Positions 1 through 55,880 of a stretch of DNA of 64,000 nt are shown here, one piece after another. How positions within the stretch are numbered: the stretch's first letter is position 1; every line of letters starts with the position of its first letter. This DNA is from a bacterium (lineage in GTDB: Bacteria > JAAXHH01), in the NCBI GenBank assembly GCA_965225915.1, contig OZ245326.1, positions 3,393,439 through 3,457,438 of the forward strand, given 5' to 3'. The translations under genes were made by a program, and so were the position numbers. The notes under the pieces were generated by a model. That model saw only the letters and a list, made by a program, of their open reading frames with translations, did no database searches and was not told where the DNA came from.

Positions 1-1029
1 AGTGGAAATAGCAAATGAATGGTGGTCATCGCGCAGTGATCCAAAGACTAGACCCAGATGATGTATGGCTTGCGCAATACTACGAAAATCGAGATCAGGA
101 GCACTATAAAAGCACTGCAATAGGTCTCGAACTATGACAACATCTTCGCGTTCTTCCTTATCTTTGATTTGCTTAAAGTAACTTTCAATTCCTATTGTGT
201 TAAGCAATGAACTCACATACCTTTGGCGATCCGGTTCCGGTAGCCTGAAACTGACATCGAAGAATCGTCGCAAATACCCCTCAGCATCAAAACTGCTTCC
301 ATATAGTGCCTTTATCGAATGGGACAGTTCGGACCGATTGATCGCTAGTACAAATACAATATGGTTAACCGTAAAAAGGTGTTTAGCTATCTCGAGAAGT
401 TCTACAGCGTACGATGGCCGACATCTGTCTAACTCATCAATCAAGACGACTAATGGGCGAAAGTCGTGGGATTCAGTTACTGCTTTTGCTGTCTCTGATA
501 GTGCCTGTTTAAATTCAGTTACGGTTTCTTTACCTTTACCGTACGCAGCCAACTTTTCTTTGATGAACGTAGCAGAACCTTGAGTGACCTCTTTTTCAGT
601 ATTGGGATCAAAATTCAATAGCTCCGGCATTCCGAATCGCACTGCGATTGGAGTGACCCAGCGAATGAGATCGACAGTCGCGTCGACCATCTTGTTGATC
701 TGAGTTGTGTATGTATTGCCACCACACTTTCGAATACCCTCGTTAATCTCTGAAGATAGAGCAAGGAATGGATCCTTGGAGTAGTCAGTACTCCAAGCAT
801 TAAACTCGATAACAGCAAACCCCTTATTTCGAAGAAATTGCGCCCAAATCCTGATAAACGTAGTCTTCCCGGCTCCCCACATGGAGTCAATTGCCAAGAC
901 ACACGGTCCTTCTATAGAACCGATCAGGTGAGTGAGAACCTCAGTTGGTTCCTTCCTCTCAAGAAGATCGTTTTTAAATGGATCTTTTTCAGGAACTTCA
1001 ACTTCCAGTGGTTGAATACGTATTCCCAC
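1..1029 (-). CDS. KAP family P-loop NTPase (N-terminal ~340 aa; C-terminus runs off the window start)
   Basis: Manual minus-strand translation from a GTG at 1029..1027, preceded by AAGGAG 8 nt upstream, gives MGIRIQPLEVEVPEKDPFKNDLL...AIDSMWGAGKTTF (Walker A) ... PLVVLIDELDRCRP (Walker B, KAP-type DELDRC). It has no stop before position 1, so it is absent from the ORF track. GC is ~42% against ~60% for the rest of the window. Confidence 0.8.
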   Translation of the reverse strand, partial: MGIRIQPLEVEVPEKDPFKNDLLERKEPTEVLTHLIGSIEGPCVLAIDSMWGAGKTTFIRIWAQFLRNKGFAVIEFNAWSTDYSKDPFLALSSEINEGIRKCGGNTYTTQINKMVDATVDLIRWVTPIAVRFGMPELLNFDPNTEKEVTQGSATFIKEKLAAYGKGKETVTEFKQALSETAKAVTESHDFRPLVVLIDELDRCRPSYAVELLEIAKHLFTVNHIVFVLAINRSELSHSIKALYGSSFDAEGYLRRFFDVSFRLPEPDRQRYVSSLLNTIGIESYFKQIKDKEEREDVVIVRDLLQCFYSAPDLDFRSIAQAIHHLGLVFGSLRDDHHSFAIST

Positions 1030-1162
1030 AATGTGATTCTCCTTTAAATGGGAACTGTCGACTTCGTTTAGCACATAGGCGCTATTTGCTATTTACACAT
1101 TACGCCTCACCTTAATCATCAAAAACTGAGTTCCAGGTTTTGAGGACAAGTTCACACCAAAT

Positions 1163-2245
1163 CTACGCCCCAACTCTTGCCTCAAACGCCTCAATCTCAT
1201 CCTCACCTTCCAACACACCGATTTCCAGATGAAAGTCACGAACCTCATCTGGTTCGATGTGCTGCAGGTAACCGTTCTTGCGGTTCCACGCGCGGCCTAG
1301 CATGCTTACATTTCCGGGTTCGATGCCGGTGACGTAAGTTCCCCGGTGAAAATGCTGCCAGTGGGTGACGATCGGGATTTCCGCCTTGGGGAAGGACCAG
1401 TAAATCCCCAGGCCGAGTCGATCATTAATCAGGCCGACACGACACTGGCCGCCGGCATCGGCGCGTGGCCGGTGGATGTATACGTCGTCATGGGCTTCGT
1501 CACCGGGCGCCGGGGCGGTGGCATAGACGTCAGGACCGACCTCCCTGTCTTCGAGCCATTCTGTAGTCTTTTCACTGTCGATAACCACCCGTGTGCCCTC
1601 GTCGAGGACGGGGAAACCGGGGTTGCAGTGATAGACGAACATCAACGGGGAGCGATCGACCGATTGGTTGTGTATCCGGTCGTGGATATGCAGCGATTTC
1701 TCTCCGAGGACCGTCGAGATCTCCCGGGTCAGTTCCAGGTTGGTGCCGAAGACGACAGCTTCCCTGACTTTCCCGCGCACCTTGACGATGTAATCGTCTC
1801 CGTCCCACTGGCCATCGGTATGAACCTGTCGGGCGGGAAGGAAGGAAAGGCGACCGTGTAGCCCCAGTTCCTCGTTTTCCTCTTCCGGATCGGTTTCTGG
1901 ATGGCCCGTGAAGGTCATCCCGCAACTCAGCACCAGGCCTCCGAAGAACCCGCGCATCCAGCCATATCCCTGCGGTTCGTAGAACGCCGGTCCAACGTCG
2001 CCTGTACTGCCGCGAAAACAGAGCGACATGCCCTTGTAGTGGGCCGAGGCCACGTCCAGCGCCCGGCCCGGCAACAGGGAAAAGCACAGTCCCGATGCGT
2101 TGAACACTTCGATGAGGTCCGCTCCTCGATCGGTACCCTCGCGGAGTTCGCCATGTCTTGCATGGGCTACCTGGCTCATGTCGCCCACGAGGTCGAGCAG
2201 TTCTCTACGGGTATACTCTTTTCCAAATATACGCGCCATATTCAC
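1163..2245 (-). CDS. DUF4432 / galactose-mutarotase-like (aldose 1-epimerase superfamily) protein
   Basis: 360-aa ORF. Sequence resembles the DUF4432 / aldose-epimerase-like fold (FYEPQGYGWMRGFFGG, NVSMLGRAWNRKNG). It ends with TAG. Confidence 0.45.
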   Translation of the reverse strand: MNMARIFGKEYTRRELLDLVGDMSQVAHARHGELREGTDRGADLIEVFNASGLCFSLLPGRALDVASAHYKGMSLCFRGSTGDVGPAFYEPQGYGWMRGFFGGLVLSCGMTFTGHPETDPEEENEELGLHGRLSFLPARQVHTDGQWDGDDYIVKVRGKVREAVVFGTNLELTREISTVLGEKSLHIHDRIHNQSVDRSPLMFVYHCNPGFPVLDEGTRVVIDSEKTTEWLEDREVGPDVYATAPAPGDEAHDDVYIHRPRADAGGQCRVGLINDRLGLGIYWSFPKAEIPIVTHWQHFHRGTYVTGIEPGNVSMLGRAWNRKNGYLQHIEPDEVRDFHLEIGVLEGEDEIEAFEARVGA

Positions 2246-2334
2246 CTTCCTGTATGGTCATTGTACCGCTTAAGACTGCAATTCGGTCATAAACATGGAC
2301 CGAACCTATTTTGTTTAAATTGATCGTCTCTCAG

Positions 2335-4011
2335 TCACTTCTTCTGGATCTTCGCCCACGAATCGCGCAGGGCGATGGTCCGATTGAACACGGGGCCGTT
2401 AGATTGGGATTCTACGGCATCGATGCAGAAGTATCCCAGCCGCTCGAACTGGTAGTTCACTCCGGGAACCGCGTCCGCCAGTCCGGGTTCAACCTTGCAT
2501 TCCGTAACGGTACGTAACGAGTCGGGATTGAGTAAGGATCGTTCATCGTCCACTTCACCCGGACGGGGATCCGGATCGCTGAACAGCCGGTCGTACAGGC
2601 GCACGGTGGCGTCAAGGGCGTGGGCGGCCGATACCCAGTGAATAGTGCCGCGTACCTTTCTTCCGTCGGGCGTACTCCCGCCCCGGGATTCCGGATCGTA
2701 GGTGCAGTGCAGTTCGACAACATTTTCCTGGTTGTCTTTGATTACGTCCGTACAGGTGATGAAGTACCCGTAGCGCAGCCTTACTTCCCGTCCCGGGGCG
2801 AGCCGGAAGAACTTCCGGGGCGGGTCTTCCATGAAATCGTTCCGCTCAATATAGATTTCCCGCGAGAAAGGGACTTCCCGCGTCCCCATCTCCTCGTCCT
2901 CCGGGTTGTTCACGGCTTCCATGTACTCGGTTTGGCCGGTGGGGTAATTGGTGATCACGACCTTCAAGGGATCCAGGACGCCCATGACCCGGGGCGCGCG
3001 CTTGTTCAAGTCTTCCCGGATAATGAAATCCGACAGGGCCATGTCTATGAGATTGTGGTTCTTGGCCACGCCGACGCGGTCGCAGAGGGTTCGTATCGAC
3101 TCGGGAGTATATCCACGTCGCCGCAGGCCGGAAAGTGTGGGCATGCGGGGATCGTCCCACCCGGATAGTACGCCTTCCTCGATCAGAGGCCGGTAGAAGC
3201 GCTTGGACAGCACCGTGTGTGCGAGGACCAGAGGCGCGAACTCGATCTGCTGGGGGTGGTAGACGTCCAGGCGGTCCAGGATCCAGTCGTACAGCGGCCT
3301 GTTGTTCTCGAATTCCAGGGTGCACAACGAATGGGTGATGCCCTCAATGGAATCCGACAGGCAGTGGGTGAAATCGTACATGGGATATACCCGCCATTTG
3401 TCCCCCGTACGGTAGTGATGGGCATGGCGGATCCGGTAGAGCACGGGATCGCGCATCGTCAGGTTGGGATGGGCCATGTCGATCCTGGCCCGGAGTACGT
3501 GCGAACCGTCCGGAAACTCCCCGGCCTGCATGCGTTCGAAGAAGTCTCTGCTCTCATCGGCTGGTCGGTCGCGGTACGGACTGTTTCGGCCCGGTTCCGT
3601 GGGCGTGCCGCGGTAGTCCCGCATTTCGTCCCAGGTCAAGCTGTCGACGTAGGCGTCGCCCTGTTCAATGAGTTGAAGCGCGTAACTGTACAGTTGATCG
3701 TAGTAATCGGAGGCGAAGTAGAGCCGGTCTTCCCAGTCGAACCCCAGCCACTTGATGTCCCGCTTGATCCCTTCGACATAGTCCGCGTCTTCTTTCTCGG
3801 GATTCGAGTCATCGAACCGGAGGTTGCACAGGCCGCCGTACTCCTCGGCAACGCCGAAATTAAGGCATATCGACTTCGCGTGGCCGATGTGGAGGTAGCC
3901 GTTCGGTTCCGGGGGAAAACGGGTCATCACTTTACCCCCGAACTTGCCGCTTTCCATGTCCGCGTCGATGATTTCGCGTATGAAATCCCTATACTGCTTT
4001 TCTGTGCTCAT
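2335..4011 (-). CDS. glnS: glutaminyl-tRNA synthetase
   Basis: 558 aa. HIGH motif ([13 protein letters not shown]), KMSKS-like VLSKR, and the GlnRS anticodon-binding C-terminus. Confidence 0.95.
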
Positions 4012-4182
4012 AATTTCCTGTTCAGGCTATTTTTCGGAGCAGGTCAAGATCGGATAATATACGAATAAAAGTGCAAAGACGCAAAAGGAGTCTTATATCA
4101 GGTCAACTTTAATATAGCCGCGAATCCCGTCCATATTAAATCCTGCATTTAATAGTGGAGCGGTTCTACTTAGTCCGGTTAG

Positions 4183-5343
4183 TCAGAACCCAACATCGCA
4201 TGCGTGTTCAAGCCCAACCGCTTGCACGCGATCATGAATACGAAATCGCGATTCGCCGGGGAATACGACGATGAGGCGGTCGAGTTTCAGGTCGTTCAAC
4301 GCCGTGTGCATAGAACGTGTCATTGAAGGCGCACTGGATCGTTTGAATTCGAACCCTGTTCTTCGACCGCCTTCCATGATCAGGAGGTCGAGTTCAGATC
4401 CACGATGTGTAGCCCAGAAATAACAGTCTTCCCACGCAGTGCCTGTAATACGGACCACCTCCTGCATGGCGAAACTCTCCCACGACGCTCCGGATTTCGG
4501 ATGTCCCATGAGATCTGCCTCGTCTTTCACACCCAGCAGTGCGTGCAACAGCCCGGGGTCCGATAGATAAACCTTGGGTGCTTTGACCTGCCGTTTCTTC
4601 AGATTCTCGTACCAGGGCTGCATTCTGCGCGCTACCAGTGCGCCGACAAGGGTGTCGAAATATGTATTTATCGTTGGTGCGGTGACACCAAGTGCACGGC
4701 CGAGTTCGGCTCCGTTCCAGTGGTTTCCGTGGTAGTGGGCCAACATAGTCCAAAATCGACGCATGGAAGCGGCAGGAACAGATACCCCGAGTTGAGGTAG
4801 ATCCCTTTCTAAGAACGTTCGAATGAACGCCGACCGCCAGGTAAGGCTGTCCTCATCGTTCCTGGCGAGGAACGAAGGTGGGAATCCGCCGCGCAGCCAA
4901 AGTCGGTCCGATTCGGCGGTATCTGTTTCGTTCATCCGTAGAGGCGGAAGTTCATAATATGCGATCCTTCCGGCGAGCGATTCCGATGATTGTCGCAGAA
5001 GGACAGGTCCCGCACTGCCCAGGACCAAAAAACGGGCCGGGGTACCGGGACGGTCCGAGAGCACGCGTAGTAGTCTGAAAATTCCTTCATTCCGCTGAAC
5101 CTCATCAATAACAACCAACCCGCGGAGCGGTTCCAATGCGAGCTTGGGATCGGATAGTCGTGTCTCGTCGGTTGGGTCTTCAAGATCGAAAAAGGTAACA
5201 GAAGGTTCGACATCCTCGATCAATTGGCGTGCAAGCGTAGTTTTGCCAACCTGCCGTGCACCTATGAGACAGACCACGGGAAACTGGTTTAACAGTTTGC
5301 CAATTGCGTTGAGATGTTGGGTACGCGGGATCATACTAGACAA
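4183..5343 (-). CDS. AAA-family ATP-binding protein (AAA_14 + DUF4143)
   Basis: Walker A LIGARQVGKTTLARQL. The C-terminal region is typical of DUF4143 ATPases. Confidence 0.8.
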   Translation of the reverse strand: MSSMIPRTQHLNAIGKLLNQFPVVCLIGARQVGKTTLARQLIEDVEPSVTFFDLEDPTDETRLSDPKLALEPLRGLVVIDEVQRNEGIFRLLRVLSDRPGTPARFLVLGSAGPVLLRQSSESLAGRIAYYELPPLRMNETDTAESDRLWLRGGFPPSFLARNDEDSLTWRSAFIRTFLERDLPQLGVSVPAASMRRFWTMLAHYHGNHWNGAELGRALGVTAPTINTYFDTLVGALVARRMQPWYENLKKRQVKAPKVYLSDPGLLHALLGVKDEADLMGHPKSGASWESFAMQEVVRITGTAWEDCYFWATHRGSELDLLIMEGGRRTGFEFKRSSAPSMTRSMHTALNDLKLDRLIVVFPGESRFRIHDRVQAVGLEHACDVGF

Positions 5344-5378
5344 TATAGGTGAAAATCGAAAGCGTCGCTATTGATTTT

Positions 5379-6212
5379 CTACATTGTCCTCGCCCACGCA
5401 GCGAAATGCGGCGGGATGATCACGGGCCGTTTGGCCGCGACGATTTCTGCCCGGACTCGCTGCGGAATGGTATCCACATCCACTTCCTCCGCGGTTGCAA
5501 TCTCATATTGCTCCAGGAGCGGTACAACGCTTCGGAATGAATTAGCGACATAGGAATAACCCGGCCAGTCGGCGGATCCGCCCAGCAGTAAACCGGCGTC
5601 GAGGGTGGGCTCGGGAAGACCGGCCTCCATAAAGACTCTGTGCAGATCCAGTCCCATGGTTGCGTTTGCCCCGGACCGCTCGAATACTTCTACGATCCAG
5701 TCGCTCTATTGGCCCATGAGCGGCGTATCAGGATTATGATACGAGCGGGTAATGGTAAAGTCGATCTCCTGAAAGCAAACGATACCCCCGTAATGCAGGC
5801 GCTTCAGCAGCTGTTTCAAGACCGATATCGGATCGGGCAGGTACATGAGCACCAGGCGGCCCACCAGTGCGTCGAAACGTCCCCCCAGGTCCAGGGTCTG
5901 TGCGTCTCCCTCGATGAATTTCACGTTTTCATGACCCGCTTCTCGAACCCGCTCTCGGGCTGTATCTAGGATATCCGGATTCGTGTCCACCCCCACAACT
6001 TCCCCATCCGGTCCGACCAATTCAGCTGCGACCAATGACACGTCTCCCGCTCCGCTTCCGATATCCAGGACCCTCATTCCGGCATCGATGCCGGCCGATT
6101 TCAGAAATCGTCGCGTCAGTGGCTGGATCAGTCGCGACTGCTCGATCAACCGTTGCGTCTCTTCGTCGCTTCTCCCCATCGTGTATTGTCGATCGCTATT
6201 TTGATCCGCCAT
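5379..6212 (-). pseudogene. class I SAM-dependent methyltransferase interrupted by a single in-frame TAG (5705..5703)
   Basis: The N-terminal ORF (5706..6212) has MTase motif I VLDIGSGAGDV and ends ...PLMGQ*. After 16 more in-frame codons the same frame continues as ORF 5379..5657 (MGLDLHRVFMEAGL...), which reads as the normal C-terminus of this family. The interruption is one in-frame stop; there is no frameshift. Confidence 0.55.
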
Positions 6213-6389
6213 AACCCGTTCCTTCTCCTTTCGACGATACCATGAACTTGTTGTCTACACCTTACACAGCACACAGCATTACACATCATTCAACCTCTTG
6301 CAGTTCCACCAGTTGCCTGAGATACTATACGCGCAACGATTTTGCCATATGTAGAGTTTACTATAAGCAGAAAGCGACAACTTTCACCC

Positions 6390-7223
6390 TCACTCCTTGA
6401 CCGCCCCGAGCGTAATCCCCTGCACGAATTCCTTCTGCATCACGAGGAAGAGGACCATGATGGGCAGAATGGACAGCAGGGTGCCGGCCATGAGCATGCC
6501 GTATTCCTGTCGGTAAACGCCAACGAGGCTGGCCAGACCGAGCGGAAGTGTGTACTTGTCGGCGTCCCGCAGTACGATCATGGGCCAGAGAAACTCATTC
6601 CAGGCCCCGAGAAAACCGAAGATGCTTAAGGCCCCCATGGCGGGTTTCACGGTAGGAAGGATCACGCGCCAGTAGATGCCGAATTCGGATGAACCGTCGA
6701 TTCTGGCCGCGTCGACCAGGTCGGTGGGAATACCAAGGATGAACTGCCGCATGAGAAACACGCCGAATCCGCTGGAAGCCAGGTAGGGAAGGATCACGCC
6801 CTGGTAGGTGTCCAGCCATCCGAATTTGTACAGCAGGGTGAACAGCGGGACCAGCACCAGGTGAAAGGGGATCATCATCGAGCCAAGGACGATGGCGAAA
6901 AGGACGCCGCGCCCGCGAAAGGAGTACTTGGCGAAGGCGAAACCGCCCATGGTGGCGATAGCGAGGAGAAGCAGCGTGTGGGAAGTGGCCACGAAGGTGC
7001 TGTTTATGATGTACTGGACGATCGGCATTTCTTCGAACAACCGGGTGAAATTCTCGAGCGTCGGATCCTGGGGCAGGAAGGTGGGCGGATAAGAAAAGAT
7101 CTCGCCGGACGGCTTGAATGAAGCGGAGACCACCCAGAATAGCGGCGTGAGGACCAGCAGGGCGAGGAAGACCAGGAGGATGTATGTCAGCACAGTTCGA
7201 AAGGGAAATCTCATAACACTCAA
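6390..7223 (-). CDS. carbohydrate ABC transporter permease (MalG-like)
   Basis: 277 aa, multi-TM, with the EAA-loop region IDGSSEFGIYWRVILP. It overlaps the upstream permease by 4 nt. Confidence 0.9.
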   Translation of the reverse strand: MSVMRFPFRTVLTYILLVFLALLVLTPLFWVVSASFKPSGEIFSYPPTFLPQDPTLENFTRLFEEMPIVQYIINSTFVATSHTLLLLAIATMGGFAFAKYSFRGRGVLFAIVLGSMMIPFHLVLVPLFTLLYKFGWLDTYQGVILPYLASSGFGVFLMRQFILGIPTDLVDAARIDGSSEFGIYWRVILPTVKPAMGALSIFGFLGAWNEFLWPMIVLRDADKYTLPLGLASLVGVYRQEYGMLMAGTLLSILPIMVLFLVMQKEFVQGITLGAVKE

Positions 7224-8071
7224 TTCTCCCTGAACACGCCAAAAAACCGGACCTGGATAATAGAAATCACGCCGATGATCACGGCCAGTGCCCAGCCGAT
7301 CGTCGCCGCGTATCCTAGATTGATGAACTCGAAGCCGTGCTTGTACAGGTACATCACCATCGTGATGCTCGCGTTGCCCGGGCCGCCCTCGGTAAGCACG
7401 TAGGGCAGGTCGAAGAGTTGGAACGAGCCTATCATGGATGTGATCACCACGAAGGCGATCACCGGCTTGAGGGCCGGGATCGTCACGTGTATGAAAGTCT
7501 GCCAGGTACCGGCCCCGTCGACTGCCGCCGCCTCGTAAAGCTCACGTCGTATACTCTGAAGCCCCGCCAGGAAATAGACCATGTTGAACCCCGCCCACCG
7601 CCATACACCCGCCAGTATCAGCGCGGGCATGACCAGGTCCGGGTCCTGAAGCCATTGGATCTCTGAACCCAGGACCATGTTGACCAGGCCGTAACGCCTG
7701 TCGTACAGCAGGTAGAATATCACGGCGATGAATACGCCCGATATGAGGACGGGAGCGAAGAAGGAAAGGCGGAACAGGTTTCTTCCCTTCAGGCGGGCGT
7801 TACTGAGTAGCAACGCGAGGGCCAGGGCTACGGGCAGCTGCAGCAGAAGGCTGCCCAGGGCGAAATAGGCCGTGTTCCAGAGTGCGGTCCAAAAAACGGG
7901 GTCGGCGATCAGGCGATCGATGTTAGCCAGCCCTACGAAAGTCTCATTCCGCATGCCCCGGACGCTGTACATACTGAGCCGGATCGAATCGAACAGGGGA
8001 TAGACCATGAATACCCCGAAGAGGGCAAAAAATGGGGCGAGAAACGCGTAGGGCGCGTACCTGGGTTTCAT
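7220..8071 (-). CDS. carbohydrate ABC transporter permease (MalF-like)
   Basis: 283 aa, 6 TM, with the EAA motif AAAVDGAGTWQTFIHVTIPALKP. Confidence 0.9.
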   Translation of the reverse strand: MKPRYAPYAFLAPFFALFGVFMVYPLFDSIRLSMYSVRGMRNETFVGLANIDRLIADPVFWTALWNTAYFALGSLLLQLPVALALALLLSNARLKGRNLFRLSFFAPVLISGVFIAVIFYLLYDRRYGLVNMVLGSEIQWLQDPDLVMPALILAGVWRWAGFNMVYFLAGLQSIRRELYEAAAVDGAGTWQTFIHVTIPALKPVIAFVVITSMIGSFQLFDLPYVLTEGGPGNASITMVMYLYKHGFEFINLGYAATIGWALAVIIGVISIIQVRFFGVFREN

Positions 8072-8141
8072 GGTTAGCGTGGCCGAAGTTGATGGGTGGC
8101 GCTAAGAGTTTATGTTGTTCAGACGTGATTCAGCTTCGACG

Positions 8142-9488
8142 TTACTCTATTTCGACGGATTCCTGGTCAATCCGCCGGATATTGACAGATGAAGCTTCTT
8201 CCATCATTGCACGAATCTGGTCTGCCAGGTTCGACAACGCCTCGGCGGGCGTTCGTATGCCCTGCGCCGCTTCGTGCACGGTTTGCCGCAACAGGTCCGA
8301 GCCTTCTGCCCAGTAAGGATTCAGGTAGAATGCCGGAATGTCGTCGCCCAGGTCTGTCAGGGTTTTTCCCAGGACCTGGCCGCCCAGGTAGGGATCCGCC
8401 TCGGCGAACACCGGGTTGGACCACGCCGATCGTATCGGTGGAATGATGGTGGTTTTGCGGTACCTGTTAGCAAGCGCTTCGTCATCCATGTATGCGAATC
8501 GGACAAAGGACCAGGCGAGGTCCGGGTTCTTGCTTTGCTTCGTAATCCCGATCATCGTTCCACCCCAGGTTGAAGTTCGGCGTTCACCTTCCCTCCATGC
8601 GGGCAGGGGCATGGCCCGCCATTTCCCGGCCAGTTCGGGGATGAATCTCTTTACCGATCCGATGTACCAATCCGGCGCAAGTATGCCCAGCACGATGCCT
8701 TCTTTCATGGCGGCGAAATTGGCCGGGTCCTGGGAGAATTCGGGAATGGCCAGGCGCTCTTCGTTGAGCAGCCTGCAGTAGAACTCCAGCGTGGATACGG
8801 CGATTTCGTTGTCGATGATGACCCCGCCGTCCTTATCGAACATCCCACCGCCGTTCTGCAGGAGCATCAGCCAGAAATGACCGGGCTTGTGCGCCCTCAA
8901 CATGAGAGGATACCTGTCCGGCCTCCCGTCGCCGTCGTCATCCCGGGCGAGTTTCCGTCCAGCAACGATGAAGTCGTCCCAGGTGTGTATGGATTCCGGG
9001 TCAATGCCCGCTTCTTCGTACGCGTCGTGACGGTAGAGCAGCACGACGGGATGGACATCGTGAGGAAGACCGTAGACCCGTCCATCGAGGGACCAGGGCG
9101 CCAGTCGGGCCTGGACGAATTCATCCATAAGCCCATCGGCTTCGACGCGATCGGTCAGGTCAACCAGACCGATTTCCTCCCGGCTGCCCTTGAAGAACCG
9201 GCCTACCGATGATATTTCCACTTCGGTGATATCCGGAGCACCAATACCCGACAGGAATGCCGCGAGCAACTTGTCGTGAATTTTCGAGATCAGTCGCAGG
9301 TCGACCTTGACCCCCGGATTGGCGGCCTCGAAAGCAGGAATTCTCGCGCTGTATTCATCATAGTGGATCTGATGGAAGACCCAGTATTCCAGTGTGTTCG
9401 AACGGTCATCACCGCGGAACACGATTACGGGGCAGGCCAGGAGGAATAGCAGGGCGAATATCAGTGGACCCTTGCCGAAATGATTCAT
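8142..9488 (-). CDS. ABC transporter extracellular solute-binding protein (family 1, sugar-type)
   Basis: 448 aa with an N-terminal signal peptide. It sits directly upstream of the two permeases on the same strand. Confidence 0.85.
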   Translation of the reverse strand: MNHFGKGPLIFALLFLLACPVIVFRGDDRSNTLEYWVFHQIHYDEYSARIPAFEAANPGVKVDLRLISKIHDKLLAAFLSGIGAPDITEVEISSVGRFFKGSREEIGLVDLTDRVEADGLMDEFVQARLAPWSLDGRVYGLPHDVHPVVLLYRHDAYEEAGIDPESIHTWDDFIVAGRKLARDDDGDGRPDRYPLMLRAHKPGHFWLMLLQNGGGMFDKDGGVIIDNEIAVSTLEFYCRLLNEERLAIPEFSQDPANFAAMKEGIVLGILAPDWYIGSVKRFIPELAGKWRAMPLPAWREGERRTSTWGGTMIGITKQSKNPDLAWSFVRFAYMDDEALANRYRKTTIIPPIRSAWSNPVFAEADPYLGGQVLGKTLTDLGDDIPAFYLNPYWAEGSDLLRQTVHEAAQGIRTPAEALSNLADQIRAMMEEASSVNIRRIDQESVEIE

Positions 9489-9548
9489 TTTCTATGCTCG
9501 TTTACGGTTTGCGGATAATATACGCAAGTCATAATTTTGCACCGGCAT

Positions 9549-9704
9549 CTAATCCGTTAAAATCGATATGAACTCCTGGATACGGAGCTCAACGCGCTGT
9601 TGAGGTGTCAACTTATTTTCGAGGATGTTGTTGGGGCGTTGTAGGAATGCATAAGTCATCAGAATCAGGCAGACTATAACCACTAACCTAAATAAGGTCT
9701 TCAT
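9549..9704 (-). CDS. small hydrophobic peptide (51 aa, single predicted TM/signal-anchor), unannotated in ORF track
   Basis: Manual translation: AAGGAG, then 8 nt, then ATG at 9704. It encodes MKTLFRLVVIVCLILMTYAFLQRPNNILENKLTPQQRVELRIQEFISILTD*. It lies in an AT-rich gap between the Na+:solute symporter and the solute-binding gene, on the same strand. Confidence 0.35.
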   Translation of the reverse strand: MKTLFRLVVIVCLILMTYAFLQRPNNILENKLTPQQRVELRIQEFISILTD

Positions 9705-9782
9705 GATGTTCACTCCTTATCGCACCAAATCCTCGGCTCGATTACAATCTCGCATTCCAGCGCTTAGGCCAAACGCCACGGA

Positions 9783-11252
9783 TCACCCATCCCCCATGGC
9801 CTGTCGGATCGGATCCATCACGGGACGTACAATAGTATCCGGCGGCGGGGACGTGAAGAGCGATACGGCTATCCCCGTAACGGAACACGTCAGGAAACTC
9901 CAGGCGACGGGGATCAGTCCCGGATTCGGGAGCCATTCGTAGAACATGGCGATGAGCACGGCGTTACCGGCGATGATGGCCGTGATAGCGCCCGGCGCCG
10001 TAAACCGTTTCCAATGCAGGCCGAGCAACCAGATGGGCGTGAGCGTGACGAAACCGGAAAATGAAAGCTGGGCTATTGCGAAGATGGAATCCGGCCGGAG
10101 GATGACGATGTAGTAGGTGATACCGCCGAGGATAACGAGAAACAGCCTGCCCAGTACAACCTGCAAGCGCTGCGACAGGCCATACCATACATCTCGCGTA
10201 AGCATGGACGACAGCGTCAGCATCTGGGCGTCCAGCGTGGACATGACCGCTGCCAGGATACCGGCCAGCGCCAGTCCCTGGATCATGGGACCGAAATGGC
10301 TGCGAATCACCATGGGGAAGACCATGTCCGACTCCCGGCCCATAAAATCGGGAAACTCTATGCGTCCCCACACGCCGTAAAGCGTCGCCACCAGCATCAG
10401 TCCAATCATGATGACGGGATAGTACCGGATGGAGTTCTTCAATGATTTCACGTCTTTTGCGGCGAATACGCGAACCAGCAGGTGGGGGAAGGCGAGCACG
10501 ACCAATCCCATGGACATCCCCCACACGAACCACGCGCCCGTCGTGAAAGGAGGTGTGTCTTTCGTGGCCATCATTTCCGGAAACCGGCGGCCGACTTCCT
10601 TCATCACTCCGGATATACCGCCGAAGTCGGCGGCGACGGCGAAGATCGATACGTAGAGGAACACGCCGAACACGAGGCCCTGGAACACGTTGGTCCACAT
10701 GGTCGCCCGCATGCCGCCCGTTGTGGTGTATATCAGCGTGATGACCAGGATTCCCGCCGCCGCGGTCTCGAATGAGATCGCCTGCTGGGTGAATACGTCC
10801 ACGGCAAGTCCCACCCCGGCGACGCCGGTGGACATGTAGGGCAGCATGTAGATGAAATAGACCACGAAGAGAAGCCGGCCCAGGTTGGGGCTGTCCAGCC
10901 TGCGGGCGAGCAGTTCCGCGGGTGTCACGGCTTTCAATTTCCTGGACGCGATCCACGCAGGGTACCCGATGACGTAGTAGGCTACGGGAATGATGAGCGC
11001 CGCCATGGCCGCCGTGTAACCGAACACCCCGACGCCGTGATGGTAGGCCAGCCCCGAAATGCCCATGATCAGGAACGGCGTGATATTGGTGCCGAAAAGC
11101 GCCATGAACAGGACGAGCGACTTGGCGAGCCGGCCGCCGAGGAAGTAGTCTTCAGGCGTTGGAACGGAGCGGCGGAACGCGGCTGCTCCGATGCAGAGCA
11201 CCACGGCGAAGTATACCACCACCACGACGAATATGGTCGCTTCAGGCCCCAT
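9783..11252 (-). CDS. sodium:solute symporter (SSF) family transporter
   Basis: 489 aa with ~13 TM helices and SSF-family sequence features. It is preceded by a DUF3311-type small membrane protein. Confidence 0.9.
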   Translation of the reverse strand: MGPEATIFVVVVVYFAVVLCIGAAAFRRSVPTPEDYFLGGRLAKSLVLFMALFGTNITPFLIMGISGLAYHHGVGVFGYTAAMAALIIPVAYYVIGYPAWIASRKLKAVTPAELLARRLDSPNLGRLLFVVYFIYMLPYMSTGVAGVGLAVDVFTQQAISFETAAAGILVITLIYTTTGGMRATMWTNVFQGLVFGVFLYVSIFAVAADFGGISGVMKEVGRRFPEMMATKDTPPFTTGAWFVWGMSMGLVVLAFPHLLVRVFAAKDVKSLKNSIRYYPVIMIGLMLVATLYGVWGRIEFPDFMGRESDMVFPMVIRSHFGPMIQGLALAGILAAVMSTLDAQMLTLSSMLTRDVWYGLSQRLQVVLGRLFLVILGGITYYIVILRPDSIFAIAQLSFSGFVTLTPIWLLGLHWKRFTAPGAITAIIAGNAVLIAMFYEWLPNPGLIPVAWSFLTCSVTGIAVSLFTSPPPDTIVRPVMDPIRQAMGDG

Positions 11253-11521: not shown

Positions 11522-12889
11522 TCATGGTCCGGTCGATTCCGAGGCGCCGCTCAGCTTGCCGATGTACCGGCGGGTTTCCGCGGCAACGATGGGAGACAGG
11601 AAAAGCAGGCCAACCAGGTTGGGAAAGGCCATGAGCCCGTTCATGATATCGGAAACTCCCCAGACCAGTTCCAACTCGGAGATGGCGCCGATACCGACGA
11701 AGAGGCAGAACAGCGAACGGTACGGCAGGGCGGCGCGTTCACCGAGCAGGTAAACGAAGGACTTCTCGCCGTAGTAACTCCAGCCCAGGATGGTCGAGTA
11801 TGCGAACAGCACGAGTCCCAAGGCGACAAGATGACCACCGAATCCTCCAGGGAGTCCGGTGGTGAAAGCGGCGGCCGTGAGCGACGCGCCGGTGTCGCCC
11901 GACAACCAGACACCCGTCCCGATGATGGTGAAACCGGTGATCGTGCACACGACCAGGGTATCGATGAAGGTCTGCGTCATGGATACCAGGGCCTGGGTGA
12001 CGGGATCTTTGGTCTGGGCGGCCGCGGCGGCAATACCCGCGCTACCCAGTCCGGATTCGTTGGAGAATATCCCCCTTGCCACCCCGAACTGGACCGTCTG
12101 GCGGACCATCGCGCCTGCGAAGCCACCGGCGGCCGCGGCCGGCGTGAAGGCGTGCGTGACCACGAGTTCGAAGATACCCGGAATTGCGGAGGCGTTCATC
12201 AATATGGCCGTCAACCCGCCGATGATATACAGGACGATCATCGTGGGGACGATGAAGCTTGCCGCCCGGCCGATGCTCTTGATCCCGCCGATCAGTACCA
12301 GGCCCGTTCCGACCATCAGTACCCCGCCGGTGATCCAGGGGGACACGCCAAAGGTGCTCTGGAGCACGTCGGCCATGGAATTCGACTGGGTCATGTTGCC
12401 GATGCCAAAGGCCGCCAGGGCCGCAAAAAGCGCATAGGCGCCGCCGAGCCATTTCCAGCCCAGCGCGTTGGTGATGTAGTACATGGGACCGCCCTGCATG
12501 AGTCCCTTCGAATCCTTCTCGCGGTACTTGACGGCCAGGACGGCTTCCGAGTACTTGGTGGCCATGCCCACCAGTCCCGTCATCCACATCCAAAACAACG
12601 CGCCCGGACCTCCGGCCGCGATGGCCGTGGCCACGCCGGCGATATTTCCCGTACCTACCGTTGCCGCGAGGGCGGTCATCAGGGCCTGGAAATGGCTGAT
12701 ATCCCCTTCGGCATCCGCCTCCCGGCGGCGTACCAAAGCCAGGTACAGCGCGTGGAACAGGGAACGGAACTGCACGCCTTTCAGCAGTACCGTGAGATAG
12801 AGTCCCGTACCGCCCAGCAGCACCAGCATGGGCAATCCCCATACGTAGCCCTGAACGGTACTGACTAAGTCAAACATCGTGTTTTCCAT
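11522..12889 (-). CDS. alanine/glycine:cation symporter (AGCS) family transporter
   Basis: 455 aa. AGCS-like motifs [12 protein letters not shown] and [10 protein letters not shown]. Confidence 0.9.
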
Positions 12890-13100
12890 GAGGTGTTCCG
12901 TGTGAAGGTGAAGGGGCGGACAACGAAGGCCAACGTAAGATCACGCCGGAACGTATGTCAAGCACTTTCCATTTTCTTACTTGATCTTTAACCTCCCCCT
13001 TCATATAGTGAGCCATCGCCGGATATCGCCCCCAGGGGCCGGGCCGGTCTCCCAACCTACATTGTCAGAACGACCCTATATCATCTGAGGATCATTTTAC

Positions 13101-14090
13101 ATGTCAAGACTCCGTATTGGCATAGCAGGCGCCGGCGGTATGGGCGGCCACCATGCCAGGATGCTGTCCGCTCGCGACGATGCCCAGGTCGTGGCGCTGT
13201 TCGATACCGACCCGGTGGCGATGAACCGCCTGGAAAAGACCCTCGGACCTACGGTTCAGGGCTTGAATCACTATGGTACTTTAGCGGCCATGATCGAATC
13301 GGAACAAATGGACGGGGTCGTTATCGCGACGCCCCACACCCGGCACGCGGACCAGGTCCGGACCAGCCTGGAGGCGGGACTGCACGTCCTGGTAGAGAAA
13401 CCCATGGCGACGACGACGCGGGACGCCAGGGATTTCATCGACTATTCAGAAAGGGCCGGCAAGGTGCTTGCGGTCGCCTATCAGCGGCATGGCGAGGGCA
13501 AGTTCATCAAGGCCCGCGAGATGATCGGGAACGGAGTCATCGGCGACGTGCGGCTCGTACACGTCATCATCGCCCAGGACTGCCTGGGAATCTTCAGTCC
13601 CGGCGCTTCATGGCGTGCCGATCCTGAGCTTTCCGGCGGCGGCCATTTCATGGACACGGGCAGCCACATCAATGACATTTTACTGTGGACAACCGGCCTG
13701 GAACCCATGTCAGTTCATGCCTTCATTAACCCCGAAGGCACCCTGGTCGACGTGAATACGGCCATCTCGGTCAAGTTCACCAACGGCGCCGTCGGCAACC
13801 TGTCCTACACGTCCATGTCGCCCGAATGGCGGGAAGAGTTTACCTTTTACGGCACGGAAGGCGTCATGCGTTTCGGCGCGTCGGAACCCCTGTTTGTCCA
13901 CCGCAACGGGGAAGACATTCGGTTGCCTCGGACCCCAGGCCGGGGGAAACCGCCGGCCGATAATTTCATCGAGGCCATCCTGGGCGAGGCGGAAGTGCAG
14001 GCTCCGCCCATTTGCGGCCTGCGAGTGGTGCAGTTGACCGAAGCGGCCTACAAATCGGCCGAAAGTGGAAAACCCGAGACGGTTGGCTGA
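13101..14090 (+). CDS. Gfo/Idh/MocA family oxidoreductase
   Basis: N-terminal Rossmann motif IGIAGAGGMGGHHA and the EKP motif. Confidence 0.85.
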   Translation: MSRLRIGIAGAGGMGGHHARMLSARDDAQVVALFDTDPVAMNRLEKTLGPTVQGLNHYGTLAAMIESEQMDGVVIATPHTRHADQVRTSLEAGLHVLVEKPMATTTRDARDFIDYSERAGKVLAVAYQRHGEGKFIKAREMIGNGVIGDVRLVHVIIAQDCLGIFSPGASWRADPELSGGGHFMDTGSHINDILLWTTGLEPMSVHAFINPEGTLVDVNTAISVKFTNGAVGNLSYTSMSPEWREEFTFYGTEGVMRFGASEPLFVHRNGEDIRLPRTPGRGKPPADNFIEAILGEAEVQAPPICGLRVVQLTEAAYKSAESGKPETVG

Positions 14091-42730: not shown

Positions 42731-43974
42731 TCAGACAGCCGCTTCAGCGAAACTACCGGATCGGAGGCGGGCTCGATCCCGTTTCACGATGAGATCCTGC
42801 AGGTTGTCCAGCGTGAATTCGAGATCTTCCGGCGGTCGGCAGATATAGGTTTTCACGTTTTGAAGCAACGGTTCTTCGCCCAGGTAATAGCGTATCATGT
42901 CCGGCACGAATGCATATACGCTCTTATCGTCCGCAACGCCTGTACCCGGCGCGTTGACCAGGGTCACATTTCCGGCCTTGTAAACGCTCATCAGACCGGG
43001 CAGACCCAGGAGGGAGTCGGATCGAAAGACGAGGGGATCCAGGAAATCGTCGTCAACGCGGCGATAGATGACGTCCACACGGCGCAGACCCGACGTAGTG
43101 CGCATGTACACGTAATCCTCGTCAACCAGCAGGTCCCTACCTTCGATAAGGGTCGCTCGATCTCGTGGGCCAGATAAATGTGTTCATAAAACGCGGCATT
43201 GAATACACCTGGAGTCAGGAGTACCACGCATGGGTCCGGATGATCGCGAGGCGCGAGTTCGTGCAACATTTCCCGAAGCAGACCGCCGTAATGCTCGACC
43301 TCCTGGACCCGGCAACTGCGATACAACCTTCGTAGATTGATCTTGATAGCTTTCCGGTTAGCGACCATGTAGGACACTCCGGAGGGCACGCGCAGGTTGT
43401 CCTCGAGTACGTGGAACCCTTCATTCGTGCGCACCAGGTCGGTTCCGCAGACCGCGACGTGCGTACCATGAGGTACGGGCACTCCCCGCATTTCCACGCG
43501 GTACTGGGGACATCCCCTAACCATTTCGATGGGAATGACTCCGTCTTCAACGATACGCGCGGGTCCGTAGACATCGGCAAGGAACCGGTTCAATGCCTTC
43601 AAGCGCTGGGAAAGTCCCGCTTCGAGCTGCCGCCATTCACTCGCGGAAATGATCCGGGGCAGACAGTCGACCAGCATGATACGCTCGTTGGCCACCTCGT
43701 CGCCGTAAACCGTAAACGTGATGCCTTCACTGGAAAAGGAATGATTAACCCGTTCCTGCATGCGAACGAGTTCTTCAACGGGAAGGCGGAGCAGGGCTTC
43801 GTAGAGATAACGGCAATGATCGCGAGGCGTGCCGTCGGGCAGGAACATCTCGTCGTAGAAAGCGTTCTCCAGTTCGTACGTTTCGAAATCCATAACAAGG
43901 CTCCGTTCCGGGATCCAGCGCGATCCTTGTCCTGGAACCGTAAGACGGGAAGCAGGCGGAAGGGGTTCCGACAT
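42731..43974 (-). pseudogene. circularly permuted ATP-grasp type 2 protein, frameshifted (~43155..43165) and C-terminally truncated
   Basis: ORF 42991..43974 and ORF 42731..43111 are consecutive parts in different frames. The junction reads ...YLAHEIE|[21 protein letters not shown].... The protein stops ~100 aa early at ...[20 protein letters not shown] and runs straight into the TG-like remnant. Confidence 0.7.
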
Positions 43975-44261
43975 ACCTTACTCATGCTTTCCATTTTATA
44001 CCATGTTATATTTGGCAGCACAACAGATAATCTCAATAGATCTGGCGTAAGTCTGGTGGCAGAAAAAGCGATATGGTAAGGCCTACGGCTGTTTAGTATT
44101 CATGAAGATGTTACAATGTTTTCTGATTGCACTTTGCTCATGCGTCGGTATCTTTCCCTGTAAGTCCAGCCAGGCCGATCCGTGTTCTGTTTGACGAAAT
44201 ACAATACCTTACTTTAACAGCCTGATATTTCCGCGTTTAAATCACGGCGGGAGGCGGTTTA

Positions 44262-46208
44262 ATGGTCATCGAGTTTGTGAATCTACTCACCGCATACTTC
44301 GATTTCATCTGGTTGTCCTTCCTGTTGCTGGCCCCCATGTTGATTCTGGGTCTGCTGCTTTCCGGCCTGATTCATGTTTTCATATCACGCGAAGCCATAT
44401 TGAAATGGCTCCAGGACGACAGTCTCAGGTCGGTAAGCGTGAGCGCCGGGGTCGGCGTTCCTGTGCCGCTGTGCAGTTGCTCCGTTGTTCCGATTGTAGC
44501 GGAAATGCGGCGGAAAGGCGCATCGCGTTCCTCCTGCATGTCGTTCCTGATCACGGCCCCGGAAACCGGGGCGGATTCGATTCTCGTTACCAACGCGTTC
44601 TTCGGGATCGTCGTAGCCTTGATTCGACCCGTCATCAGTTTTATTACCGCGGTCGTGGCGGGTATCTTTTGCATCGGCCTGATCAGAGATGATAACGGCG
44701 AAGCCAGGACGGGCGACCATGACCACCGCGATCACCGCGATCATGACCACCATGATCACGTGCACGACCAATGTCATGGACACGACCATGCGGCTCATGA
44801 AACCCTCCTGTTCGAAAGGGACGATTGCTACGTCAGCCCTTCCGCCATGAAGATACTGATGGCAAGGTGGCTTAAAGGGATATCGACCGTCGCTTCCATA
44901 CGGAGGTTCGGATCGTGGGTTAAACCGGACTTCTATCGCGAACTGAATGAGGCGCAGCAGCAAAAAGTAGCAAAAACCTCCAAAGAAGATATCGTCGAAG
45001 AAGAATATCCCGGTCTCGACTTCAAGAAGATCGTCCAGCATATCATGCGATACGGCTTCGTGGAAATCGCTGACGATATCCTCTTCGCCCTGATCGTCGG
45101 CATTGCGCTGGGCGGCGTGCTCATTCTTGCCCTTCCAGCCGACATGATGTCTAACGAATACGCGCGATGGCTATCCTATCCCATCATGATCCTCGTTGGC
45201 GTGCCCCTTTACATCTGTGCCTCGGCCAGCACACCAATAGCCGCCGCGCTGGTGGCCAAGGGATTCAGCCCGGGTGCCGCCCTGATTTTCCTGATGACCG
45301 GGCCAGCCACCAACACGAGCACGATCGCGATTATCATGAGCCAGTTCGGTGCGCGATTCGCGGCCGTGTACGTTACTTCGATCATCGTGGTAACCGCCAC
45401 CCTGGGTATCGCCATCGACATCATGCTCCTGGCCACGGGATTGGCGGTTACCGTCAATCTGGGTCCGTCCGAATCCCCAACCCTTCAGTTTCTGCAATGG
45501 GGCGGCGCCTTTGCTTTGCTCGGGCTCATTATCTGGAGGTTTCGGGCCGGCGCCATGCGCAGCGGGTTCGAAGACCTAATGCTCAATATCCGTCCCCTAA
45601 CCAGGCCCTGGCTGCGAGTCTGGAAGCGTCTGACGCGGAACCGGTCCATTCGCAGCATGATATCGCCTTCCACCCCTTGGGGAATGATGCTGTACGGTTT
45701 GTTCCTGGTGCTCTTTCTGGGAAGCGGTTTCACGGTTGTGCCTCCAGGGCATGTCGGGTATGGCCGACTCTTCGGCGAAGTCTACTGGAAAGACCTGCAA
45801 CCGGGACTGCATTATCTCGCTCCGCGTCCCCTGGCCCTCGTCGACAAGTGGCCGGTTGCCGAAGTCAAATCCATCATGTCCGAATCGCCCTATGAATACG
45901 TTTCAGGCGACCTGAGCAAGCTTTCGCTCACCCTGGACGTACAGTACCGGGTAAAAGATCCCTACACGTACCATTACAACACGACCGATCCCGAAGAGAT
46001 CATCGAGGGCGCCGTCCGGGAGCACGTGCGCACGTTCATAAACGCCCACGATCTCGACTGGTTGCTCACCGCCTACCGTTCGGACCTGGAGAAAGAAATC
46101 ACCGAACTTTTCCGCCAGGACGTCCTCCCGGATGGATATGAACCGGTACTTGGCACCGTGGACCTGGTGAAGGTCAGCCTGCTTTGTATCAGTCCAGCCG
46201 AGGAATAG
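44262..46208 (+). CDS. DUF318/ArsP_1 (SO_0444-like Cu/Zn efflux) permease with His/Asp-rich loop, fused to a partial SPFH (band-7) domain
   Basis: PLCSCSVVP CxC motif. The loop DHDHRDHRDHDHHDHVHDQCHGHDH is metal-binding in character. The C-terminal ~160 aa (VVPPGHVGYGRLFGEVYWKDLQPGLHYLAP...VQYRVKDP) is the N-terminal half of an HflK/C-type SPFH domain. Confidence 0.7.
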   Translation: MVIEFVNLLTAYFDFIWLSFLLLAPMLILGLLLSGLIHVFISREAILKWLQDDSLRSVSVSAGVGVPVPLCSCSVVPIVAEMRRKGASRSSCMSFLITAPETGADSILVTNAFFGIVVALIRPVISFITAVVAGIFCIGLIRDDNGEARTGDHDHRDHRDHDHHDHVHDQCHGHDHAAHETLLFERDDCYVSPSAMKILMARWLKGISTVASIRRFGSWVKPDFYRELNEAQQQKVAKTSKEDIVEEEYPGLDFKKIVQHIMRYGFVEIADDILFALIVGIALGGVLILALPADMMSNEYARWLSYPIMILVGVPLYICASASTPIAAALVAKGFSPGAALIFLMTGPATNTSTIAIIMSQFGARFAAVYVTSIIVVTATLGIAIDIMLLATGLAVTVNLGPSESPTLQFLQWGGAFALLGLIIWRFRAGAMRSGFEDLMLNIRPLTRPWLRVWKRLTRNRSIRSMISPSTPWGMMLYGLFLVLFLGSGFTVVPPGHVGYGRLFGEVYWKDLQPGLHYLAPRPLALVDKWPVAEVKSIMSESPYEYVSGDLSKLSLTLDVQYRVKDPYTYHYNTTDPEEIIEGAVREHVRTFINAHDLDWLLTAYRSDLEKEITELFRQDVLPDGYEPVLGTVDLVKVSLLCISPAEE

Positions 46209-55088: not shown

Positions 55089-55880
55089 CTATCCCGAGGC
55101 CAGGATCGGATGCGACGGCCCTCCGAAGGGTTTGCCCGGTTTCAACGTCTGGTCGCCACCCGCGTTAAAACGGCCATTGTAGTTCACGTAGTCCGGGATA
55201 TAGATGATGGCGAGGGCTCTCCTGGGCGAACTGGTACGATTCGGTGTTGCATAGTGAAACGTGCATCCGTGATGGAAGGTTACGCCGCCAGCCTCCATTT
55301 CCATTACAACGGGCTCGACTTCGACCTCGATATCCGTTTCTTCGATGTCCTTGAGTACACTCGCTCCTTCGGTGCTCAGCGCAACAGGCGCCAATCGACC
55401 GTATTTGTGAGATCCCGGAATAAACTGCATGCAACCGTTGTCCACCGTAACATCGTCCACGGCGATCCAAGCCGAAAGCGCTCCGACTTGTTCCATGGGC
55501 CAGTAAGGCGCGTCCTGGTGCCAGTTGGTTGCCTTGCTTCGTTCGCCGCCGGGTTTGATCAGTCCATGGTCATGGTATATGACCAGATGCCTGCACTTCG
55601 ATATCTTCCGGGCGACTTCCGCCAGCCGCGCGTCGAAGGAATACTTGCGAATAACCTCGTAGTCCACCCACAGATTGACCATCTGGTTGAATACGCGGTT
55701 GTAATCGTCGTCCGCCTCACCGCCGCCACCCAGTATGCGTTCTCTTTTTTCGTCTACCGTTTTATCCAGCGCATATCCCAGTTCAGCGATTTCTTCTTTG
55801 GAAAAAAAACCCGGAATCTGGAGATACCCATTCTCCTGAAAGAAATCGAACTCTTCGGAGCCTATGTGATTTGGATTCAT
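55089..55880 (-). CDS. phytanoyl-CoA dioxygenase (PhyH) family Fe(II)/2OG oxygenase
   Basis: 263 aa. The HxD...H facial triad context is WHQDAPYW ... HHGCTFH. Confidence 0.8.
   Translation of the reverse strand: MNPNHIGSEEFDFFQENGYLQIPGFFSKEEIAELGYALDKTVDEKRERILGGGGEADDDYNRVFNQMVNLWVDYEVIRKYSFDARLAEVARKISKCRHLVIYHDHGLIKPGGERSKATNWHQDAPYWPMEQVGALSAWIAVDDVTVDNGCMQFIPGSHKYGRLAPVALSTEGASVLKDIEETDIEVEVEPVVMEMEAGGVTFHHGCTFHYATPNRTSSPRRALAIIYIPDYVNYNGRFNAGGDQTLKPGKPFGGPSHPILASG

Follow-up and report, generated by a model that had tools for sequence, protein, structure and literature searches.

An AT-rich KAP NTPase gene of the candidate family PDC-S20 in a variable defense slot beside GlnRS and DUF4432 in an uncultured marine bacterium

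The window analyzed here is a stretch of 64,000 nucleotides (contig OZ245326.1 of assembly GCA_965225915.1, positions 3,393,439 to 3,457,438) from an uncultured marine bacterium whose relatives are labeled Latescibacterota or Gemmatimonadota in their public records. Its left-hand end carries, on the minus strand, a gene for a KAP-family P-loop NTPase that lies downstream of the genes for glutaminyl-tRNA synthetase (GlnRS) and a DUF4432 protein, and the subject of this report is that gene, the slot it occupies and its probable role. Exact matching of the window's DUF4432 protein and of the KAP protein P0125 (L and P numbers designate related loci and proteins) returned no record, and the region was therefore extended leftwards with the related loci L001 and L249, whose overall identity to the window is 95-96%, rising to 99.5-99.7% in the KAP gene; L001 was used for this purpose on account of an 11-kb alignment with 96.4% identity.

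The open frame, of which the window contains 343 codons, continues beyond its left edge, as the first-pass annotation had stated; given the minus-strand orientation, what is lost is not the gene start but the C-terminal 147 codons. The full length, according to P0125 and P0001, is 490 amino acids (aa). P0001, a 490-aa protein recovered by a protein search together with a graded series of further relatives, is 99% identical to the window protein, and P0125, a cluster mate from a 3.70-Mb chromosome, matches the window exactly at its variant, diagnostic residues. The GTG start (Table 1) is consistent with the gene calls of P0001, P0004 and P0005. Both nucleotide-binding motifs, GAGKTTF and DELDRC, read exactly as that annotation quoted them, and the Pfam profile PF07693 (KAP_NTPase) is matched over positions 18-257 of 293 with 120.8 bits (gathering cut-off 20; E 8.7e-35). 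Among 39 homologs, W51, G52, G54, K55, T56, T57 and F58 around Walker A and D198-Y207 at Walker B are invariant. The homologs also share D21, L22, L23 and R25 without exception; a D-L-L-x-R motif ahead of the P-loop is, according to the description of the family, reportedly typical of KAP NTPases.

Many KAP NTPases carry a helical insert with two or four transmembrane helices between Walker A and Walker B, a feature that is frequent but not obligatory. The window protein has the helical hairpin insert (helices at residues 87-132 and 150-187) without a hydrophobic segment, and no transmembrane segment was found in it, the maximum 19-residue Kyte-Doolittle score (1.51) falling in a core beta-strand. 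Since a hydrophobic segment is absent, it is a soluble KAP variant, and the membrane association often seen in KAP NTPases, to which the first-pass annotation had pointed, does not extend to it. The AlphaFold model (predicted local distance difference test score, pLDDT, 70.6) consists of a P-loop core, the long helical hairpin insert and an all-helical C-terminal half at about residues 268-476. For the more distant orthologs, the ratio of non-synonymous to synonymous substitution rates (dN/dS) of the KAP gene is 0.20-0.23, compared with 0.03-0.09 for the flanking genes; a value of about 0.2 implies a functional gene, and we conclude that it encodes an intact NTPase under purifying selection. 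Around the cassette, Rfam gave no match, and a promoter and terminator scan performed no better than on shuffled sequence.

Table 1. Features of the KAP cassette and its borders. Positions are those of the window unless a related locus is named.
Feature	Position	Strand	Basis or remarks
KAP-family P-loop NTPase coding sequence, codons 1-343 of 490, PADLOC PDC-S20-type	1..1029	-	Translation, Pfam, PADLOC
GTG start (1029-1027) with AAGGAG Shine-Dalgarno sequence (1044-1039), 9-nt spacer	1027..1044	-	Sequence
N-terminal D-L-L-x-R motif, D21-R25, ahead of the P-loop	955..969	-	Translation
Walker A / P-loop GAGKTTF, residues 52-58	856..876	-	Read from sequence and translation
Walker B strand VVLIDELDRC, residues 194-203, with KAP-typical DELDRCRP	421..450 (DELDRC 421-438)	-	Sequence and translation
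Low-GC spacer (~0.40 GC, 133 bp), part of the cassette	1030..1162	-	Alignment; common only to KAP-carrying loci
Left-hand cassette boundary	1163..1213	.	DUF4432 stop 1163-1165; end of L005 homology 1168; breakpoints against L001 (1203) and L249 (1213)
DUF4432 gene, host-GC anchor upstream of the cassette and outside it	1163..2239	-	Pfam PF14486, E 3e-90; GC3 0.68
Hydrophobic small open reading frame, 49-50 aa, with its leader	L001 11633-11881, left of the window		Also in L249, L002, L004, L005, L007, L010, L012, L016, L022

The guanine-plus-cytosine content (GC) of window positions 1-1000 is 0.436, against a mean of 0.574 (standard deviation 0.025, minimum 0.501) in the remaining 1-kb intervals, which corresponds to z = -5.6. 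The compositional contrast reported at first pass is therefore real, although its figures of ~42% and ~60% are better given as about 44% and 57%. The deficit is carried by synonymous sites, with a GC at third codon positions (GC3) of 0.39 in the KAP gene versus 0.68 in DUF4432 and 0.76 in GlnRS. Beyond the spacer, GC is back to 0.58-0.60 by 1300-1500, and the step at ~1100-1160 that had been taken as the boundary of an acquired segment does mark one, at the stop codon of DUF4432. The remainder of that segment beyond the window edge proves to be short: in L001 and L249, the low-GC tract comprises the KAP gene and ~0.9-1 kb more, reaching ~1.4-1.5 kb past the window edge, and the variable region in total measures only ~4.4 kb. 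Further low-GC patches of the window (~9301-9850, 43801-44450 and 55551-56300) are mostly intergenic spacers amid ordinary genes.

Low GC is a family-wide property, since among 116 loci from metagenomes and viral contigs, carrying relatives 27-51% identical to the window protein, the GC of the KAP gene lies below that of its flanks in 97-99%, by a mean of 9 points. Across the family, KAP GC follows host GC (r 0.79-0.93) at an offset of ~9 points lower. The KAP cassette itself keeps a GC3 of 0.39-0.41 in hosts whose flanking genes have a GC3 of 0.68-0.86.

The slot is delimited by comparison with related genomes. KAP orthologs lie downstream of GlnRS-DUF4432 in the metagenomic loci L001 (99% identity), L002 (83%) and L004 (79%), as well as in L249, and KAP follows DUF4432 only in the window, L001, L249, L002/L003 and L004. 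DUF4432 itself is kept in all close relatives at 90-99% identity. It served as the query in a scan of one genome per species, which covered ~19 close relatives, all uncultured metagenome-assembled genomes labeled Latescibacterota, Gemmatimonadota or "bacterium," with chromosomes of ~3.8 Mb. KAP was present in the slot downstream of DUF4432 in none of the 19 species representatives, the closest one (L005) included; between L005 and the window, identity is 94.7% as far as 1168, where homology ends. Alignment shows that KAP-plus and KAP-minus loci part exactly at the stop codon of DUF4432 and that their similarity resumes with the leader of a 49-aa open reading frame (ORF).

What occupies the slot differs from genome to genome. 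In L012, L016 and L022 it is empty, with ~130 bp preceding the 49-aa ORF, and in eight loci without the variable segment DUF4432 leads straight to the beta-barrel gene ~0.9 kb downstream. L005 (9089-10087) and L007 (9089-9991 and 11082-11366) have an unrelated AT-rich 332-aa ORF in the place of KAP, for which neither Pfam nor PADLOC gave a match; the L007 copy is interrupted by an IS3-type element with orfA and orfB transposase genes. Tabulated over 22 loci, the first slot holds KAP, the 332-aa ORF or nothing, and the second a Type I restriction-modification (RM) system, an HTH-M78 gene with DUF4411, or nothing, followed by the outer-membrane protein gene. In L001 and L249, KAP is succeeded by the 49-aa ORF, a HigA-like remnant, the HTH-M78 peptidase gene with DUF4411 and an outer-membrane beta-barrel gene of host GC. 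With the same core flanks, differing or no cargo, and a cargo rich in defense genes, the locus is a defense-island hotspot.

The small hydrophobic ORF forms the right-hand anchor of the slot, whether or not KAP is there. Its leader is conserved over ~90 nt, with the invariant stretch GAGTACTTGCGGGCG...CGTCAGG, and is predicted to fold into two hairpins, of which the second pairs with the Shine-Dalgarno sequence; four of the pairs show compensatory changes. The element has no Rfam or Pfam match and resembles a type I toxin. Its occurrence in KAP-less loci led us to reject it as a possible partner of KAP. On its 3' side, a frame resembling a HigA/XRE antitoxin (L001 11930-12100; L005 10316-10723) looks split by frameshift in the long-read contig (L001) and the finished chromosome (L005) alike, and no HigB-like partner was seen.

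Hallmarks of classical mobile islands, for which the first-pass annotation had proposed a search, were not found at the flanks: tRNA genes were detected neither in the window nor at 7 related loci, the called genes include no integrase, and flanking direct or inverted repeats are at chance level only. A classical integrase-mediated island was accordingly rejected, given the lack of a tRNA or transfer-messenger RNA gene, an integrase and border repeats.

The cassette is nearly identical between genomes whose flanks are 4-10% apart. Between the window and the co-specific L001, the 342 KAP codons compared contain 3 non-synonymous differences and no synonymous one, against a synonymous divergence (dS) of 0.147 in DUF4432, and L249 displays the same contrast between cassette and flank. 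Measured per 200 bp, identity is 99.5-100% to ~1200 and then 90-92% to ~1600, the first flank mismatches being the breakpoints listed in Table 1; over the region as a whole, near-identical blocks alternate with blocks of 88-94%. Against L001 and L249, window positions 1-6900 form a mosaic in which blocks of 99-100% identity (1-1200, 1600-2200 and 4000-5000) are interspersed with others of 77-94%. This pattern implies frequent homologous recombination in the population; strain-mixed consensus assemblies are possibly an alternative source of it. The phylogenies also conflict, the KAP tree grouping the window with L002 and the flanks grouping L002 with L004.

These observations, together with a slot that lacks KAP in every one of the 19 species representatives, uphold the proposal that the gene is compositionally foreign and horizontally exchanged, and we consider a horizontally moving single-gene cassette very likely. 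The further suggestion of a recent acquisition is too simple. Because orthologs with 79-83% identity already fill the same slot in L002 and L004 (dS between copies 0.4-0.65), the cassette is an old resident of the gene pool of this clade that has been gained, lost, replaced and re-spread. Since no tRNA, integrase or flanking repeat was found, it is likely that it moves by homologous recombination through the conserved flanks, without integrase or transposase.

A KAP allele with an extra G at the window-equivalent position ~763, which puts Walker A out of frame and results in a gene call of 448 aa with a different start, is found in L249 (6001-7347) and in P0123, P0126, P0128, P0131 and P0132, from several independent assemblies, chromosomes of 3.65 and 3.80 Mb among them. 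This is likely a genuine inactivated allele rather than a sequencing error, and its presence in some co-specific genomes fits the dynamics of gain and loss. Small indels of L001 are untrustworthy because its genes for GlnRS (7019-8715) and the HTH-M78 peptidase (12389-13538) are each split into two calls, indicative of long-read frameshift errors, and are intact elsewhere, in the window or L249 (558 and 382 aa).

As to its family, the gene belongs to Pfam KAP_NTPase and PADLOC PDC-S20, a known but experimentally unproven kind, and does not represent a new kind of system. Full-length P0001 covers positions 4-461 of 464 of the PADLOC profile PDLC04959 (PDC-S20) with E 6e-117, the partial window protein reaches E 3.7e-107, and three additional PDC-S20 profiles match the full-length protein with E 1e-33 to 1e-42. 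PDC-S20-type relatives at E <= 1e-30 form 3183 clusters at 50% identity. The best 150 clusters are mostly 450-510 aa long and align over about residues 1-480, from which we infer that the NTPase with its helical C-terminal part is a stable unit. A search for close relatives on sequenced plasmids or phages returned only matches of 22-37% identity, and 340 relatives are found in IMG/VR viral contigs.

PDC families are predicted candidates defined by members embedded in RM, BREX or DISARM operons (Payne et al., 10.1101/2024.01.29.577857). The window gene resembles PDC-S20 in length (490 versus 464), in its one-gene architecture and in having relatives in or beside Type I RM systems; it differs in lying at an island edge and not inside an RM operon, with no structural difference. 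Its single-gene architecture is apparent from neighbors that differ in 8 of the 8 distinct contexts examined. Embedding varies as well: the 55%-identical P0041 lies inside an RM system, L002 and L004 have Type I RM adjacent, and L001 and L249 are without RM.

Comparison with characterized KAP systems places the protein outside each of them, since it shares only the NTPase core with RdrA, QatA and PifA and their partner genes are absent. PifA is a larger, membrane-associated protein. The PADLOC profile of this founding prokaryotic KAP member, responsible for the exclusion of phage T7 by the F plasmid, matches the window protein at E 5e-19; identity with PifA was rejected as the match is limited to profile positions 40-325 of 720, that is, to the NTPase core. 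The QatA profile likewise matches weakly and in the core only (E 1e-14), and identity was rejected with 57.8 bits for NCBIfam NF041923 against a cut-off of 600 and no qatBCD genes (QueC-like, TatD) nearby. The closest solved fold is that of RdrA, the ring ATPase of RADAR (PDB 8fnt, 8fnu and 8hr8). RdrA forms a heptameric ring (PMC9994260) and differs from the window protein in being ~800-850 aa long, two-layered and partnered with the RdrB deaminase. Identity with RADAR was rejected for want of an RdrA profile match at E <= 0.001, of a PDB sequence match and of a deaminase neighbor, only the core fold being alike.

The best functional analogy is EF_KAP. In Enterococcus faecalis, single-gene KAP NTPases with uncharacterized C-terminal regions protect from phage in a manner that depends on Walker B and is not abortive infection (PMC13552941). 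Like the window protein, EF_KAP is encoded by one gene and joins a KAP NTPase domain to C-terminal sequence without known domains. EF_KAP has two modeled transmembrane helices and a C-terminal region of 322 aa, in contrast to none and a helical C-terminal part of ~210 aa in the window protein; beyond the NTPase core, the two were compared by description.

The surroundings of KAP loci have the defense-like character that had been predicted, with RM, SIR2, PIN_4, TIR and HTH-M78/DUF4411 genes around them. Type I RM adjoins KAP in L002 (12343-20491) and L004 (12362-20036), where hsdS and hsdR enclose, respectively, a PIN_4 gene (490 aa) and a SIR2 gene (PADLOC LmuA/ThsA-like, E 1e-16); HTH-M78 and DUF4411 follow KAP in L001 and L249. 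Four loci with homologs of 55-59% identity were also examined. In L247, P0041 (55% identical) lies in a Type I RM system between HsdS/TIR and HsdR. The homolog of L248 is found beside MNT/HepT, RelB and an AAA_14/DUF4143 ATPase, and that of L245 beside AAA_15/21 ATPases, a large methyltransferase, DUF4411 and UvrD. In L246 (5482-10081, 5.5-Mb genome), a 58%-identical homolog and an HsdS-DUF559 fusion are situated between YbeY fragments of 109 and 116 aa, which looks as if the cassette had been inserted into ybeY or had duplicated part of it.

Several neighboring genes deserve mention in their own right. The RM operons of L002 and L004 contain a HicB-like gene between hsdM and hsdS and are followed by a low-GC UvrD-like gene; with the genes enclosed by hsdS and hsdR, they are textbook examples of embedded cassettes. 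A second KAP NTPase (29% identical, 468 aa, GC 0.41-0.44) lies between AAA_14 and GlnRS in L006 (4722-6128) and L007 (~4659-6110), so both slots flanking GlnRS-DUF4432 are able to hold KAP-type cassettes. In the window, positions 4183-5343 (minus strand) encode an AAA_14/DUF4143 ATPase (PADLOC candidate PDC-S01, E 1e-77; GC3 0.55), which fills another variable slot, flanked by a methyltransferase gene and GlnRS, and, like KAP, lies in a 99-100% block against L001 and L249. This gene is present in the window, L001, L005, L006, L008, L016, L018, L022 and L249 and absent in the other relatives, and the corresponding slot of L004 holds Fic, a 199-aa ORF and an MFS gene. The adjacent S-adenosylmethionine-dependent methyltransferase gene (5379-6212, minus strand) has an in-frame TAG at 5706-5708 (CAA TAG AGC) with the frame unchanged after it; it is intact in the relatives L002, L004 and L249 (255-277 aa) and probably a nonsense pseudogene in the window.

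Overall, the window gene is best explained as a stand-alone soluble PDC-S20 KAP NTPase that occupies a cassette slot on the margin of a small defense island, an explanation we hold with somewhat more confidence than doubt. By analogy with EF_KAP, its product would probably be an anti-phage defense factor. As to mechanism, the protein may assemble into an RdrA/QatA-like, heptameric ring in which NTP binding and hydrolysis would serve as a switch or motor, and the all-helical C-terminal half (~268-476) could be the part that senses or acts upon a phage component, with no need for a dedicated partner enzyme. A nucleotide-driven ring with a sensing or effector C-terminal half is the weakest step, and we offer it tentatively, with doubt prevailing.

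Several points weigh against the overall explanation. PDC-S20 is a prediction only, and a literature search for the family gave no mention and no experimental report. No effector domain is recognizable, the C-terminal half has no Pfam match, a PDB sequence profile search returned no match, and the AlphaFold model is of only moderate confidence. The structural similarity to RdrA is confined to the ATPase core (~215 residues), and the validated KAP defense proteins have transmembrane helices and C-terminal regions unrelated to that of the window protein. In the window's own lineage (L001 and L249) no RM system is adjacent, and the frameshifted allele of several co-specific genomes implies that the gene is dispensable. 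Furthermore, dS cannot strictly be compared between genes that differ widely in GC, and L001 is an error-prone long-read contig.

Three other explanations were considered. The KAP protein could be an accessory or regulatory module that broadens or gates the activity of neighboring defense genes, such as Type I RM or toxin-antitoxin-like (TA-like) pairs, much as the range of QatBC is modulated by QatA. QatA is needed against some phages and dispensable for others, PDC families are found inside RM, BREX or DISARM operons (10.1101/2024.01.29.577857), and the position of P0041 between HsdS/TIR and HsdR and the Type I RM directly downstream in L002 and L004 fit such a role. No neighbor, however, is conserved across loci: L001 and L249 lack RM, the neighbors in L248 and L245 are quite different, and whether the slot is full or empty bears no relation to the module downstream of it, which makes an accessory function unlikely. 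Less probable still, in our view, is that the gene is a selfish accessory of the addiction type, or that the NTPase serves the cell in some way unconnected with phage; low GC would then simply be the AT bias common in mobile DNA. Against this idea, defense-derived profiles are matched end to end, a defense or TA context is present at every locus examined, and hotspot turnover combined with purifying selection is the usual signature of defense genes. Its attraction lies in the many contexts of KAP NTPases, with more than 1000 plasmid records among them, in the TA-like remnants of the neighborhood, in the predicted status of the anti-phage function of KAP, and in the argument, quoted in PMC13552941, that phage exclusion is not the primary role of PifA.

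A vertically inherited native gene whose AT-richness is kept by selection, for instance for low expression or silencing, so that low GC would not signify foreign origin, is the least probable of the three and largely refuted as a complete account. The orthologs of L002 and L004 do show no sign of amelioration, with a GC3 of 0.39-0.41 in hosts of GC3 up to 0.86 and dS of 0.4-0.65, and the tracking of host GC at ~9 points lower across the family points the same way. A native gene is nevertheless hard to reconcile with a slot that lacks KAP in all species representatives, the nearest included, with the discordant divergence of cassette and flanks and with other genes in the same slot. Normal-GC housekeeping neighbors together with conservation of the gene at the locus, the combination named at first pass as evidence against a recent acquisition, were looked for and not found. 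Maintained AT-richness is compatible with horizontal exchange, and a native origin therefore explains the composition only.

The stand-alone defense cassette thus remains our preferred explanation. Extended to the family, it leads to a rather speculative proposal that we consider possible and, on balance, doubtful: soluble PDC-S20 KAP NTPases of ~490 aa may be a widespread stand-alone anti-phage system without a recognizable effector, in which an RdrA-like ring would allow the C-terminal module to hit a phage component directly, by remodeling or sequestering it or by burning NTP, and AT-richness would be functionally maintained, for instance for silencing or control of dosage, instead of only marking a foreign origin. 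The full-length sequences of P0125 and P0001 are suitable for a first experimental test of PDC-S20.

For the organism, the window starts, on its left-hand side, at the margin of a small defense hotspot beside GlnRS-DUF4432 and not in core genome, which matters for annotation and strain comparison. The loci make up a natural series with sharp borders, in which a group of uncultured marine bacteria carry KAP, a different gene or nothing in the slot, and would offer an example of defense-cassette exchange that needs no mobile-element machinery.

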